DNA of 7,995 bases from a virus (lineage: Duplodnaviria; Heunggongvirae; Uroviricota; Caudoviricetes). Positions 1,929 to 7,900 of this stretch are shown here, one piece after another. The DNA lies in IMG/VR virus record IMGVR_UViG_2740892422_000008. One strand, written 5' to 3'. Positions within the stretch are counted from its first letter, which is position 1; each line of letters starts with the position of its first letter. The notes under the pieces were generated by a model. The model was not told the origin of the DNA. It saw only the letters and a program-made list of their open reading frames with translations, and ran no database searches. The position numbers and the translations under genes were made by a program.

Positions 1929-1991
1929 TGTCTTTTCTCTCATAAAATAAAATTTTGTGATGGCGGTGAGGCTACACCGCCAAAGTAAATA

Positions 1992-3044
1992 TCAGGAGCC
2001 GATATATTCTGGTTTCATATCTGTCAGTGTCGTTTTATACGCCTCATATAATTCACCCAGATGTGGCCGGGCAGCATTCAGCGTATTTTCCAGAGCAGTA
2101 AATTTTTGTTCTGCTTCTGGATCACCTGAAGAAGGTAGGTCATTTATCATCTTCTCGATACGGGCAATAGCATTGAGACGGTGATGACGCTGAACCACTT
2201 TTCCTTTAAGTTCCGTATAGAGAGCGCCAAGTGTATTTTTATGATCTTCCACTTCCTGGCGAAGTGCTGTTGTTTCCCCGGTGCTTTGTGCCTGCTCAAT
2301 ACGTTCACGGAAAGCATCGATCCAGTTTTCCCCGGCATCCTGCTCAATAATTGTTGTTTCACGTTCCGCGCGGCAAGCGGAAGTGTTTTTATGTTCCTGA
2401 ACCGGATTAATGATTTTTTCCTGTGGCTCGTCCAGTTCGTCCCTGGTGTACACTCCAAGAATCACTTCGGGGCAATAAAGGCGCGCCCAGCGTTTCAGCG
2501 CCAGATAGGCAAGCTGCTGGCGAGGATCGTCGGCCCATAGCGTTGAATTACGTGTTCTGGCCTGCGCCAGAAGTAATTCCAGTACGCGTGGTTTACTTTC
2601 GCCGCGTAGTGTTGCCTGGACACGAACACCGATCCCGTTTTCATCGGCCAGCTTCCAGCCAGGTACACGATATTCTTTCCCTTTGTCGCTCTTCCTGATT
2701 TCAAATTTCCCGATAATTTTTTCCCACGGCCCGAACCAGTCATATTCAATACGCCCGGTTAGCGGCCCACGAGTACTGATTACGGCATTAACCAGTTGCG
2801 CTTCATATCCGAGCACACCATTCACAACGAAAGTTTTCTGAGCTACTGCGTAAGGGTTCATTTGCCACTGCATCGCCTGCATGGTGATGGCCATGCAGTC
2901 TGATGGATTTCCCCGGAGGTGTTCCGGTACAGTAGCCATGCCGGAAGCCATTACCTGGGAAAATGTCTGAATTGCAGCCAGGGACTGAGGGCTGAAAACC
3001 GCAACATTAGAGTTAATATTTTCTTGTTGAGTTAATTCGTTCAT
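1992..3044 (-). CDS. Phage single-strand annealing protein, Bet/Redbeta-like (RecT/Redbeta superfamily), 350 aa, with a ~130-aa helical C-terminal extension
   Basis: ATG at 3042-3044 preceded by GAGGAAGG, 11 nt downstream of the exonuclease stop (translationally coupled pair). Core motifs align by eye to lambda Bet: GNPSDCMAITMQAMQWQMNPY…VNGVLGYE versus GDASDAQFIALLIVANQYGLNPW…VVGVDGW, and KRWARLYCPEVILGVYTRDELDE versus KRMLRHKAMIQCARLAFGFAGIYDKDEAE. It is not the K-12 RecT sequence as I recall it. Confidence 0.72.
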   Translation of the reverse strand: MNELTQQENINSNVAVFSPQSLAAIQTFSQVMASGMATVPEHLRGNPSDCMAITMQAMQWQMNPYAVAQKTFVVNGVLGYEAQLVNAVISTRGPLTGRIEYDWFGPWEKIIGKFEIRKSDKGKEYRVPGWKLADENGIGVRVQATLRGESKPRVLELLLAQARTRNSTLWADDPRQQLAYLALKRWARLYCPEVILGVYTRDELDEPQEKIINPVQEHKNTSACRAERETTIIEQDAGENWIDAFRERIEQAQSTGETTALRQEVEDHKNTLGALYTELKGKVVQRHHRLNAIARIEKMINDLPSSGDPEAEQKFTALENTLNAARPHLGELYEAYKTTLTDMKPEYIGS

Positions 3045-3055
3045 TGTGTCCTTCC

Positions 3056-6000
3056 TCAGATGCTCAGTGCTTCAAGACGACGAAGATCAAAGTCGTTTAA
3101 TTCGTCGGTATAACTTTCGGTAATCGGTGCTGGCCAGTTGTTTGTCTCCAGGGCTTCGTTTATCTGGCGTAGCGTCCGGCGATATTCCTGTCGACCAAGT
3201 TCCAGGAGTTCCTGCGAGGCTTCCACGACTGCCACCCAGTGATAGCCAGCATCTTTGTTGACGAAGATCCAGAAAAATTTGTCCAGATTTGCCACATCGC
3301 AATACATTGCTGCGCTGAGGTGATAATCACGCTCAATAATTTCACGGTGCAGGCGATCTTTCAGTCGTTCCTGTCGCACATAACCGAGGCTGACTGACTT
3401 CACGTCGGCGCAAATGCTTTCGTATGGCAGCCGGATTTCGATATCAGGACGGACCCTGATTTCCAGCCCGGTTTCTTCATCAAACCCGAAATAGCTGATT
3501 TCAGATTTGCGATCCGGGTGGTTGAGTAGCCTTGCTGCATCAGTATTGTTTTGCAGTGCAGCGTGAATATTTTTTGCCTGTTCATACATATCTGAACTGA
3601 TAAACGTTTTCCCGGCGTTTTCTTCTTGCTGGCGTTTTTGCCAGTCCTCCAGGGTAACCAGTTCCGGGCGGATTTTCCGAGCGATTTCGGTTAATTGCTC
3701 TTTCGTGCCACTGATGTTGTAAGGCAAAGATTTAGCACGTTCTTTTTTCGCCAGTTCTGGATCTACAGTTTCAATTTGCTCCAGAAGTTGCTCCCGTGTT
3801 CCACTGGTTTTCAACAGAGGAGGGAGGTTTGCATTGTATTCTCTAATGCAGGCTTTCATTGCCGATGCAGTATGTTTCTCCTCCTCCGGAATACGCCGGA
3901 ATTCCACCGGAAGCGAACCGTAAAGGATGCCTGTTTCTTCGGCTCCAGCACTTACAGACAGTGGCTGTATAAGAGTGCTGTTGTAGCTTTCGATCCACTC
4001 TTTCATCTGCTCTGGTGTCATCAGTGCTGGCAGACTGGCATTGTGTTTTTTAATGATGGCGATCAGTTCGCTAGAAGTAGTAACCACATATTCAGGAACT
4101 GGTACCGGAATGGCATATTCATCAGCGAATTTATCCGTTTCCAGAACATAGCTGTGAATGATCCGCCCACGCAGCAGTGCATCACTTTCCTCGTTCGGAA
4201 TAGTTCCGGCAATGTGCCGTCCGTGGTAATACATCAGGCTGATACGGGCATCCTTCAGCATCGTGCTGCTTATTCCGTTGGCGGAGTGATAAACCTCGTT
4301 CGGGAGGTTTTCATAGCGGCCAGGCTCGAAATATGACGGCCACATGATTTCAGTTGCTACAGGAGCTGACGCTTCACCAGTTTCATCACTGCAATCACGA
4401 TGCGGATCGCTGCCAGCATTCTCATTGTGCGGATGTTCAGCGCCTTCCATTTCCACCGGATCTTTTTCCTTAGCTTCAACCTGATTCTCTTCATCGAATG
4501 TTTCCTGGTATGTTGCGTCGCCCGTCACCGCCCCACAGTCAGGGCAGTTATCTCCGCCAGTCTGACCGCAGGCATTGCAGACTATTTCCGGTTCCTGTTG
4601 CACTACTGGCTCAGGTTGTTTCACATCCGGGCTGGTTTTTTCCGTTTCTGGCTGGTTCTGGTACACAGAATCGCGAGTCTGGATCCCCTTAACCCATTTC
4701 GGATCGTTCGGGTCGCTAATTCCGTCAACAAATTCACCACGTGATGCAGCAAGCAATTTATCGGCATCGACAGGATTTTTTGATGGAATGTTTTTCCGGG
4801 CTTCATGGAGTTCTGCCCGCAGTTCCTGATATTTCGCATCAACAGAATTTACCGGTGACTGAGCATCCAGCGGCTGCGTGTCCTGATGATGTTTAGTTGC
4901 GTCCGGTTCCATTGTTTCAGCCTCTCCCTGTTCATCTGCCGTTGTTCCAGATGGTTGCGGTTTTTCTTCATCATCCTGTTTTCCTTCTTCTGTTACTCGC
5001 TGCGGCATCGGGGCAGAGGAGCGACCGCAGGCAATATCCACGATTTCCGGATCAGGGTTGGCATGATCGGTTTCAGTCAGTACTTTGTTCAGATATTCAG
5101 TGACGTGCGCGGGGGTGACCTCGATCCCAATTGGTGCTTCTTTTACGGACGCAACCACGATGGCGCGGGAATAATCCAGCCCGCCAGGCATGGTGATGAA
5201 TTTGTCGCGGAAAACAGAAAAGGGCGGTTTATTTTCAGCGATAATTTCCTCAATGCGTTTAGCGTGTGCCGGATGAAGGTTATAGATGTCCAGATCCATT
5301 GAACGGGCCAGTACGCCAGTGGCTACGTCGCGCGCCAGTGACGTCAGATCGTGTACGAAACCTTCGCCGCGATCGGTGAGGTTTCCGCCGCCAGCATTAG
5401 CACCGGAAGCCGTGCGAGTGATGTGTGAAACACGATTACCCTTCATCCACTCTTTTGTCAGCAGTCCTCGATCGGTGTAGTCAGCGTTCAGGTATGCTTC
5501 GAAAAAAGCAGTTATCAGTCCCAGGTTTGAATTACCAGGATTAGGGAAAACTTTGTCAGTGTCACGAACCAGTTTGTGGAGTTCGCGAATTTCCAGCGGG
5601 GCGAGCAGGCTGGTTTTGTGGGAAACAGCCAGGGCAGTAACAGCCGGTAGTTCTTCAGCCCGAGCAATGTGTAATGCCTGGAGTCCGTCGCGTGAAACGT
5701 GCGTTACCGGTTTTTCGCTGCCGTGTTGAGCAAGCCAACGAATGGGCAGTTCCTGGCCAGAAATTGGGAGTAGCATATTCTCCTCAATCTCAGTCATGTC
5801 TTCGCCGTTGACGTTGGTATTGCCTTGATAGTGAGCGTTGTCTGGTGCTGCTCCCGGTTTTAGTTCCCATGTCATGGAGTCTTTGCTGAGTTGATAGCGT
5901 TCACTCCAGGTAAAATCGATCTCACCTTCAGCGGGCAGGTCATTAACGACAGGAAAATTCGTGGCAACAGCTTTAAAATAGCTGCTCAGTTTTTTACCTG

Positions 6001-6127
6001 ACTTAACGATCAGGTAGTCCAGAGTGGCACAGGTCGATTCAAAATCGTCACTTGCCCACAGGACGACGTCAGGTTCACCGGATGATTTTTTCGCTTTCCG
6101 TAACAGGAAGAGTGGTTTTGTGCTCAT
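3056..6127 (-). CDS. recE: Exodeoxyribonuclease VIII (RecE-family 5'-3' dsDNA exonuclease), 1023 aa; N-terminal ~585 aa K-12 RecE-like, C-terminal PD-(D/E)XK domain divergent with a repeat insertion
   Basis: ATG at 6125-6127 with GAGGT upstream. N-terminus [26 protein letters not shown]… matches K-12 RecE from memory. The C-terminal domain keeps RecE-type motifs (YH…GIS.S.L.D; IRVRPDIE…ADVK matching the RPD…DVK catalytic core) but is otherwise divergent. Confidence 0.88.
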
Positions 6128-6199
6128 TGTTTTTTAACCTCAACTCAGATTAAAATTCGTTTTGTTCAGTGAATGATCTTGCCGGATACACACTGTTCA

Positions 6200-6222
6200 T
6201 AGCCTGCGCCATACGCAGGCTA
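6200..6222. other. Perfect 9-bp stem / 5-nt loop hairpin in the racC-recE intergenic spacer
   Basis: TAGCCTGCG ccata CGCAGGCTA. Followed on the plus strand by TTTCTTTC, but not by a U-tract on the minus (gene) strand. Confidence 0.3.
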
Positions 6223-6228
6223 TTTCTT

Positions 6229-6504
6229 TCAGATTTCACCTTTTAATTTCATTGCAATCAGAGTTGCCAGAAATCCGGCTTTTTTTTCTGCGGGCAGATT
6301 CTTTCCGATATGCACCAGGCTCATTTTTTTGACACCTTCGTGAAGTGTTTTAACGTTGCCTGATGGACCGTCGATATCAACTACAGTGAATGGGGTTTCT
6401 TTATTTTCTGTTTTAATCACGTAGCCAATACGCTTTCCTTCCAGATTAACTTCGTGAACAATGTCATCAGTAGTTACAACAGTGGCTTCATAACTGGTAA
6501 TCAT
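6229..6504 (-). CDS. racC: RacC prophage protein, 91 aa
   Basis: MITSYEATVVTTDDIVHEVNLEGKRIGYVIKTENKETPFTVVDIDGPSGNVKTL… matches K-12 RacC from memory. ATG at 6502-6504 is preceded by AAGGAG; the track start at 6552 is an upstream extension. Confidence 0.88.
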   Translation of the reverse strand: MITSYEATVVTTDDIVHEVNLEGKRIGYVIKTENKETPFTVVDIDGPSGNVKTLHEGVKKMSLVHIGKNLPAEKKAGFLATLIAMKLKGEI

Positions 6505-6578
6505 GTTTTTCTCCTTAATTAAGGTTGAGCGAATCCCTGCCATTGCTGGCATAAATTCAGTTTCGCATAGTCAGTTAA

Positions 6579-6749
6579 TTAAAGTTCGTGTGCCATCTGG
6601 TCTTTTTCGGCACATATTTCACTACAATATTTTTTCATTTCCGTCGTTGGGATAACTCCACGCATGAAATGAAGTGGTCTTTTAATGCTTTTGCTTTCTT
6701 TAACTTCTTTATCGCAAAGGTGGTAAGCACATTTTATTTTCTTAGTCAT
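6579..6749 (-). CDS. ydaE: YdaE-like small Cys4 zinc-binding protein, 56 aa (absent from the ORF track, below its size cut-off)
   Basis: Manual translation of the minus strand gives [56 protein letters not shown], stop TAA at 6579-6581. Cys pairs C7/C12 and C42/C46. Its ATG (6747-6749) overlaps the kilR stop as ATGA, indicating translational coupling. Position between kilR and racC matches the Rac gene order. Confidence 0.8.
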   Translation of the reverse strand: MTKKIKCAYHLCDKEVKESKSIKRPLHFMRGVIPTTEMKKYCSEICAEKDQMAHEL

Positions 6750-6970: not shown

Positions 6971-7141
6971 AATTATCTCCATTTTTACAAATGAACTTTG
7001 TTGATGCGGTGCCTGGTGCCTCCAGGTGACTGCAACCAGTTAACAATTACAGTCGGCTTTCCCACCCAAACCAATAAGGACTAACATGACTTTTAACTGT
7101 GCCACGTGCGCTTAGCCGCATTCACCGCATCACAAAACTCA

Positions 7142-7193
7142 CTTTAAAAAGGGCGGACATCAGCCGAACTTCAAGAAAAAAACTGATGCCGCC
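7142..7193 (-). terminator. Candidate intrinsic terminator on the minus strand, upstream of kilR
   Basis: Inverted repeat GGCGG(a)CATCAG (7152-7163) / CTGATGCCGCC (7183-7193): 11 bp with one bulged base and a 19-nt loop. On the minus-strand transcript it is followed directly by CUUUUUAAAGU (plus 7141-7151). No U-tract follows it on the plus strand. Confidence 0.35.
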
Positions 7194-7411
7194 AGGACTA
7201 CACACAGCAATGTCGTTATTTACAACCGGAGGCGCACTCCCACCATTTAAATTTAACAGACAAGACCGACTCTTTATGGATATCGGAAATGCGCCTTCGT
7301 GTTGTGCCCGGTTTTATTTCACCACCTCCGGGCTTCGGTGGTCTCGGCTATACCCCTACAGCGAGAGCTTGTGTTAACATTTCAATACCCTTACAGTTGA
7401 GAGTTATTGAT

Positions 7412-7900
7412 ATGTTGGATATATTTACTCCATTGTTGAAACTTTTTGCTAACGAGCCACTCGAAAGACTTATGTATACGATTATCATTTTTGGTCTCAC
7501 TCTCTGGCTGATACCGAAAGAGTTTACTGTCGCATTCAATGCTTATACTGAAATACCTTGGCTCTTTCAGATTATCGTTTTTGCCTTTTCTTTCGTGGTC
7601 GCCATTTCCTTCTCAAGATTGCGAGCACATATTCAAAAGCATTATTCATTACTACCAGAGCAACGAGTATTGCTTCGTTTATCTGAGAAAGAAATCGCTG
7701 TATTTAAAGATTTCCTTAAAACAGGAAATCTTATTATCACTTCTCCTTGCCGTAACCCGGTTATGAAAAAATTAGAACGGAAGGGCATCATTCAACATCA
7801 GAGTGATAGCGCAAACTGTTCTTATTATCTCGTCACCGAAAAATACTCCCATTTTATGAAGTTATTCTGGAACAGCAGGAGTAGACGTTTTAATCGTTAG
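7412..7900 (+). CDS. sieB: SieB superinfection exclusion protein, 162 aa, two predicted N-terminal transmembrane helices
   Basis: ATG at 7412 (MLDIFTPLLKLFANEPLERLMYTIIIFGLTLWLIPKEF…), stop TAG at 7898-7900. Matches Rac SieB from memory. Hydrophobic segments at about aa 21-36 and 48-67. The track start at 7289 is a non-ATG upstream extension. Confidence 0.88.
   Translation: MLDIFTPLLKLFANEPLERLMYTIIIFGLTLWLIPKEFTVAFNAYTEIPWLFQIIVFAFSFVVAISFSRLRAHIQKHYSLLPEQRVLLRLSEKEIAVFKDFLKTGNLIITSPCRNPVMKKLERKGIIQHQSDSANCSYYLVTEKYSHFMKLFWNSRSRRFNR

Follow-up and report, generated by a model that had tools for sequence, protein, structure and literature searches.

Small antisense RNAs encoded by phages provide the closest described systems for the element presented here. 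OOP RNA of phage lambda is a constitutive antisense RNA of 77 nt that has a promoter of its own and ends at an intrinsic terminator. Located in the rightward (pR) operon, it is complementary to the end of cII together with the adjoining intercistronic region, and the duplex of OOP and mRNA is cut by RNase III. The sar RNA of phage P22 (68–69 nt) is encoded on the opposite strand of the arc–ant spacer, convergent with the strong operon promoter, and it covers the ribosome-binding site of ant and blocks translation directly. In the Rac prophage RalA is described as the antitoxin of RalR with a demonstrated toxin–antitoxin role (PMC4041452). The same prophage contains racC and recE, which have been described as a linked pair: RacC blocks the retron toxin RcaT and RecE triggers the same retron. 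A widely used recombineering system is also based on the recET genes of Rac. In MG1655 these genes are reported to be completely repressed, their activation being known from sbcA mutants and from lambda-rev phage (PMC3945230).

Here, we analyze a hairpin located upstream of recET, in the spacer between racC and recE, in a stretch of 7,995 nucleotides from the tailed-phage record IMGVR_UViG_2740892422_000008 (Caudoviricetes), in the following called the window. The explanation that we consider probable as a whole is that of a plus-strand terminator that ends a short antisense RNA, which would be transcribed from its own promoter and act as a regulator in cis. Its parts differ in strength and are weighed separately below.

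Genomic setting of the spacer

All genes from intR through kilR are located on the minus strand, and sieB at the far end of the window is the only one on the plus strand. Between racC and recE (Table 1) there is a spacer of 101 bp (6128–6228), in good agreement with the approximately 100 bp given in a first-pass annotation of this DNA. Read on the minus strand, the hairpin is found 5 nt past the racC stop codon and 71 nt ahead of the recE start codon. The same annotation had implied an origin from K-12, which does not hold: the window is 100% identical to E. coli RM10740. An alignment of positions 6100–6260 with K-12 MG1655 reveals one difference, at position 6259 inside racC, and the spacer is identical. 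This means that data obtained with K-12 apply directly to the spacer of the window, with coordinates in NC_000913.3 corresponding to window positions plus 1411259. There are no mismatches to K-12 in 6120–6231 versus 48 in 5900–6700, and just 4 in 5001–6127. A reading of the spacer conservation as a sign of selection was rejected because divergence is likewise low in 5001–6127, which points to the boundary of a mosaic block.

Table 1. Positions of genes and of observed, predicted and candidate elements around the racC–recE spacer (window coordinates)
Feature	Positions	Strand	Remarks
recE	3056–6127	−	1023 aa in the window; start codon 6125–6127
Candidate sigma-70 promoter	6127–6156	+	−35 TTGTTT 6127–6132, 18-bp spacer, −10 TAAAAT 6151–6156
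Variable body	6158–6198	+	about 40 nt up to the terminator stem, 45% identical between alleles; flanks 94–100%
Inferred antisense RNA	6164–6227	+	64 nt, 5' stem-loop and terminator; 3' end measured, 5' end predicted
Predicted 5' stem-loop	6167–6195	+	CAGUG...CACUG in allele A, GAGUGAUGAA...UUCUUCACUC in allele B
Stem-loop, very probably a terminator	6199–6223	+	ATAGCCTGCG / CCATA / CGCAGGCTAT, 10 bp, −16.1 kcal/mol as plus-strand RNA
Short T-tract	6224–6228	+	TTCTT, or TTTCTTTC counting the last stem T; outside the racC coding sequence
racC homologue	6229–6504	−	91 aa; TGA stop 6229–6231

Other parts of the window show further peculiarities. The region 1983–4357, which comprises a RecT-family gene (1992–3044, 350 aa) and the 3' part of recE (approximately 1300 nt), has no nucleotide similarity to K-12 Rac, and the remainder of the window is 96–98% identical to it. 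The pattern suggests a mosaic exchange of the recombinase gene and of the C-terminal, nuclease-encoding end of recE. Between the stop of the recT-family gene (1992) and the start of ralR (1928) an 8-bp G+C-rich hairpin (TGGCGGTG/aggcta/CACCGCCA, 1961–1982) is followed by a U-rich tail (UCACAAAAUUUUAUUUU) on the minus strand only, and it may represent a minus-strand terminator or processing site after recT. RalA is found at 1557–1735 on the plus strand (Rfam RF02694, 212.7 bits, full-length) and, as in K-12, it is situated opposite the end of ralR and a DUF1187 gene. The K-12 small RNA KilS (b4833) corresponds to window positions 7146–7243. Inside this region there is a DicF match on the minus strand (7151–7206) that remains below the Rfam threshold (39.1 bits versus a gathering score of 48), and just downstream, in the kilR leader, a likewise sub-threshold match to STnc100 (34.5 bits, 6997–7135, minus strand). 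KilS may be a relative of DicF that, like DicF, precedes a cell-division inhibitor gene.

The stem-loop and its strand

The 9-bp arms that had been reported, TAGCCTGCG (6200–6208) and CGCAGGCTA (6214–6222) with the loop CCATA, are present exactly as placed. An extra A–T pair extends them to a perfect 10-bp stem (6199–6208 / 6214–6223) with a 5-nt loop and 6 G–C pairs. In 500 dinucleotide shuffles of the window a perfect stem of 10 bp or more with a loop of 3–8 nt turned up 0.05 times per window, and one of 9 bp or more 0.21 times. Among six terminator-like sites in the whole window the racC–recE hairpin is the strongest. The window contains two perfect hairpins of at least 10 bp versus the 0.05 expected, and the second one (AAGATTTCCT/taaaac/AGGAAATCTT, 7707–7732) lies inside the sieB coding region.

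A U-tract had been claimed for the plus strand only, and this is indeed the case: the stem is followed by the T-rich tail TTCTTTCAGA on the plus strand and by GAACAGTGTG on the minus strand. It has to be considered that the plus strand consists of 31% T and that T-runs are commoner there by chance. As plus-strand RNA the stem-loop fits the class of intrinsic terminators, being G+C-rich with a stem of 10 bp, a loop of 5 nt and a folding energy of −16.1 kcal/mol. The U-rich tract comprises the T at the base of the stem plus TTCTTTC (6 of 8 U) and is short and interrupted (UUUCUUUC), which places the K-12 and window type, here called allele A, at the weak end of the class. A consensus scan called a terminator at the hairpin on the plus strand only.

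An RNA 3' end at the hairpin in vivo

Term-seq of MG1655 (Adams et al. 2021, PMC7815308, Supplementary file 1) contains a 3' end at 1417486 on the plus strand, which was classed as antisense to racC. It corresponds to window position 6227, 4 nt past the stem, where the RNA ends with ...GGCUAUUUCU-3'; the printed sequence context gives the same end as ...CGCAGGCUAUUUCU. The table shows 50 nt of sequence before and 10 nt after each 3' end, a layout that was confirmed on ChiX. The end is covered by 185664, 146140 and 296292 reads in three condition lists (PMC7815308), which were assigned to LB at OD 0.4, LB at OD 2.0 and M63 glucose on the assumption that they follow the file order. For ChiX these lists give 445279 and 552306 reads and for SokC 66697 (PMC7815308), so the RNA ending at 1417486 reaches approximately 40% of the ChiX count in the first list. 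This position and its recurrence in three conditions uphold what the first-pass annotation had offered as a fallback, namely that the hairpin terminates an antisense transcript. We conclude that it is very probably an intrinsic terminator of the plus strand, opposite to the racC–recE–recT operon. A longer antisense transcript could also account for the RNA detected at 1417486, which would then be its stable 3' fragment.

Two alleles of the spacer

For a comparative analysis viral contigs were scanned for the conserved block TTTTTAACCTCAACTCAGATTAAAAT, and loci of E. coli, Shigella, E. ruysiae and phages were added. The resulting 138 related loci contain 26 distinct spacers that fall into two discrete alleles. 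Besides allele A there is an allele B, found e.g. in phage vB_Apl-pPE4 and in strain ETEC4075. Among 5426 complete E. coli genomes, 1594 contain a full-length copy of allele A and 268 one of allele B. RacC homologues were found in Escherichia and Shigella only, and among them neither a third allele nor deeper covariation was detected; RacC proteins with just 56–69% identity to that of the window still adjoin a spacer of allele A or B. The phage vB_Apl-pPE4 (PP818812.1, locus L014) was deposited as a phage of Actinobacillus pleuropneumoniae, and its kil-ydaE-racC-recE region, which is Rac-like, is unexpected for this stated host. The identity of this region to the window amounts to 84% across the 241-nt spacer query and to 94–95% in the flanking recE and racC.

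Divergence between the alleles begins one base past TAAAAT and extends over the variable body (Table 1). The transcribed segment, differing between the candidate −10 box and the terminator, thus behaves as an exchangeable module, as far as can be judged from the sequences. A hairpin is found at the same position in both alleles, with the arms ATAGCCTGCG/CGCAGGCTAT in A and AGGCCTGCAC/GTGCAGGCTT in B. In the alignment its nine core pairs are paired on the plus strand in all 19 distinct variants, including compensatory double changes at two of them (AU to UA and AU to GC, or the reverse). All 14 non-Watson–Crick cells in these core pairs, distributed over three positions, are G·U on the plus strand and equivalent to C·A mismatches on the minus strand. 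As this asymmetry goes back to about four independent substitutions (roughly 1 in 16 by chance), it is, taken alone, only suggestive of the plus strand. The loop-closing position of allele A runs in the opposite direction: a U·G pair there favours the minus strand, on which the stem has 11 bp and −17.3 kcal/mol versus −16.1 kcal/mol on the plus strand. Natural variants retain the plus-strand hairpin and weaken its minus-strand counterpart, with −14.0 versus −7.5 kcal/mol in B7 and B22, −14.2 versus −11.9 in A13 and −18.3 versus −15.8 in B24.

In both alleles the T-tract is restricted to the plus strand, allele B having the longer one (TTTCTTTTTTT). The short stretch that separates the stem from the racC stop codon is non-coding and T-rich in both, and much more so in B. 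On the minus strand a U-run past the stem is absent from all 26 spacer variants, the tail being GAACAGUGUG in A and CUGAGUGAAG in B.

In several loci (L027, L030, L055 and others) the loop, corresponding to window positions 6209–6213, is inverted in place, CCATA being exchanged with TATGG in allele A and ACT with AGT in allele B. Such inversions are typical of template switching within a palindrome and show that a DNA hairpin forms, and the RNA stem is left unchanged.

A candidate promoter and the predicted antisense RNA

Upstream of the terminator a candidate sigma-70 promoter (Table 1) has the best score of a position weight matrix within 600 nt and ranks about 11th among 7968 plus-strand positions of the window; a stricter consensus scan did not call TTGTTT-18-TAAAAT. 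Across the aligned loci it is invariant except for one T/C exchange in the −35 box. This conservation is ambiguous since the same bases serve recE on the other strand as start codon and ribosome-binding site (Shine–Dalgarno sequence). A transcript starting near G6164 and terminating at 6227 would lie wholly inside the racC–recE spacer, between the recE Shine–Dalgarno sequence (6138–6141) and the racC stop codon. The RNAs predicted for both alleles fold into two hairpins with −24.9 and −26.8 kcal/mol (z = −4.9 versus shuffled sequences), and the motifs AGTGA and CACT of the 5' stem-loop are kept in both. On balance we favour, by a modest margin of belief, that the RNA has this promoter of its own and a size of 64 nt, both being predictions from the sequence.

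On the mRNA strand (6132–6155, minus) the Shine–Dalgarno region of recE can pair with the complement of the candidate −10 box; the inverted repeat TTTTAACCT/AGATTAAAA (89%) at these positions would form a weak hairpin that sequesters GAGG. Two further candidates were rejected. A minus-strand ORF of 16 codons (MNSVYPARSFTEQNEF) starting in the 3' arm of the allele A hairpin has lost both frame and sequence in allele B. Targets in trans were sought in the window and in 20 long allele B loci, where matches of 9–10 nt to the body of the RNA occur at chance level, an example being ATAAATGTCC inside recE of several allele B loci.

In the annotation of NC_000913.3 there is no non-coding RNA at the spacer, and the nearby RalA and KilS are annotated. 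Positions 6100–6260 gave no Rfam match on either strand at E ≤ 1, and the supplements of ROSE and TERMITe contain no entry for the racC–recE site. The literature that was searched mentions neither the sequence nor the coordinates nor a small RNA at racC. The 3' end is known from a published supplementary table, and in this literature it has apparently been neither named nor annotated nor discussed.

Alternative explanations

The best surviving alternative, which we nevertheless regard as unlikely, accepts the plus-strand terminator and dispenses with a dedicated small RNA. The hairpin would then act as an insulator that stops spurious antisense transcription from the AT-rich recE before it enters racC–ydaE–kilR and proceeds towards sieB; with the same low likelihood the abundant 3' end would belong to a decay product that is kept stable by the hairpin. 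In horizontally acquired DNA antisense promoters within genes are frequent, and weaker promoter-like sites are found on the plus strand further upstream (−10 hexamers at 5776–5781, 5974–5979 and 5911–5916). It also fits that none of the 229 candidates in a small-RNA sequencing catalogue of 2011 is located at the racC–recE locus. However, a read count of this height relative to ChiX in all three conditions is high for spurious antisense RNA, which is normally removed by Rho, and the best promoter match is found directly upstream, 71 nt from the 3' end. In addition, the two alleles differ exactly between promoter and terminator, with the 5' stem-loop kept in each of them.

The first-pass annotation had placed the function of the hairpin on the mRNA strand, where as a terminator, pause or processing site it would limit expression from racC to recE and help to keep recET silent. 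For this there is the stability of the minus-strand hairpin in allele A, which equals that on the plus strand, its distance of only 5 nt from the racC stop codon and the silence of recET in wild-type K-12 (PMC3945230); a 3' hairpin could also stabilize a processed racC message. Findings given above run against such a barrier, because a minus-strand terminator lacks its U-tract throughout the 26 variants and natural variation lowers the stability on this strand while the plus-strand hairpin is kept. The Term-seq lists contain no minus-strand 3' end between 1411575 and 1418562, which is a weak argument as the leftward operon is repressed in those cultures. Silencing of racR de-represses racC, recE, recT, ralR, xisR and intR together (bioRxiv 10.64898/2026.09.06.749655), and this joint response indicates read-through and control at the RacR-repressed promoter. 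Neither of the two specific mechanisms proposed for the barrier could be substantiated. As to a Rho site, the minus strand past the stem is, judged by eye, not visibly C-rich or G-poor, unlike a Rho loading site, and the K-12 list of Rho termination regions has none with a 1414xxx–1418xxx coordinate (Adams Supplementary file 2). As to an RNase III target, the stem measures 10 bp on the plus and 11 bp on the minus strand and stays below about two helical turns (roughly 20 bp or more). Stems of 10–11 bp are too short for a classical RNase III substrate. Altogether a role of the hairpin as barrier to recE expression is improbable.

That the palindrome acts as DNA, i.e. as site of a dimeric protein, cruciform or recombination hotspot, is hardly credible, since against the perfect DNA symmetry and the inverted loops (which show that a DNA hairpin forms during replication or repair) stand several variants that break this symmetry but keep G·U pairing on one RNA strand, the free variation of the loop and of two stem positions between the alleles, the location of an RNA 3' end exactly where a terminator predicts it, and a copy number (median 1, at most 3 places per genome that has the sequence) that also speaks against a dispersed REP-like repeat, recE and racC being annotated under every match among those listed.

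Possible function of the antisense RNA

Returning to a terminated antisense RNA with its own promoter, a role in cis is proposed because the RNA would be complementary over its whole length to the racC–recE mRNA in its intercistronic part. It may act as a cis-antisense regulator after the operon has been switched on. Once repression by RacR is lifted, a sense–antisense duplex of approximately 64 bp could form and serve as substrate of RNase III, which we consider the most likely route, and cleavage would separate or destabilize the racC and recE–recT messages. As a second possibility head-on transcription from the convergent antisense promoter might interfere with the operon. A regulatory role of this kind is suggested by the arrangement of the locus and remains a tentative proposal, to which we give less credence than to the promoter and size of the RNA.

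Still more speculative, and in our opinion rather doubtful, is the idea that the two mutually non-complementary alleles represent specificity types of a constitutive, allele-specific antisense RNA of Rac-like prophages. If this were true, the RNA would cleave or silence only the matching racC–recE message, either that of its own induced operon or that of an incoming phage of the same type. It would thereby set the ratio of RacC to RecE or mediate an immunity-like exclusion between Rac-like phages, and it could add to the long-known silence of recET in K-12. The two-allele structure makes this specificity hypothesis readily testable.

As regards its nature, the element is very probably an intrinsic terminator of ordinary kind, and probably that of a cis-antisense small RNA of the prophage. 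Such an RNA would be the third small RNA of the Rac prophage after RalA and KilS, and it would add post-transcriptional control to an operon thought to be governed by RacR only. Should it be functionless, the finding reduces to the correct strand for an ordinary terminator.

Comparison with known antisense and small RNAs

OOP and the predicted Rac spacer RNA are both small lambdoid antisense RNAs, regulation being only predicted for the latter. They share no sequence similarity, and the Rac spacer RNA has no match in Rfam. OOP overlaps the coding end of cII, whereas the Rac RNA, as predicted, covers non-coding spacer only and belongs to the leftward recombination operon. With P22 sar it has the intercistronic antisense position in common. 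In contrast with sar, the predicted Rac RNA ends approximately 23 nt short of the recE Shine–Dalgarno sequence, and therefore neither occlusion of this site nor a direct block of translation is expected unless its 5' end is located further upstream.

The hairpin resembles the canonical intrinsic terminators of E. coli small RNAs such as ChiX in its G+C-rich stem (about 10 bp), its short loop and its U-rich tail, within which the Term-seq 3' end is located. ChiX and other Hfq-binding small RNAs have a tail of 7 U, whereas that of allele A is short and interrupted (UAUUUCU) and that of allele B is long. RalA, finally, differs in being a molecule of 179 nt with an Rfam family of its own, compared to the unannotated and much shorter spacer RNA, which is without a toxin partner. 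Nevertheless, both are encoded by the same prophage, on the plus strand and opposite to the leftward operon, and both are expressed in the lysogen.
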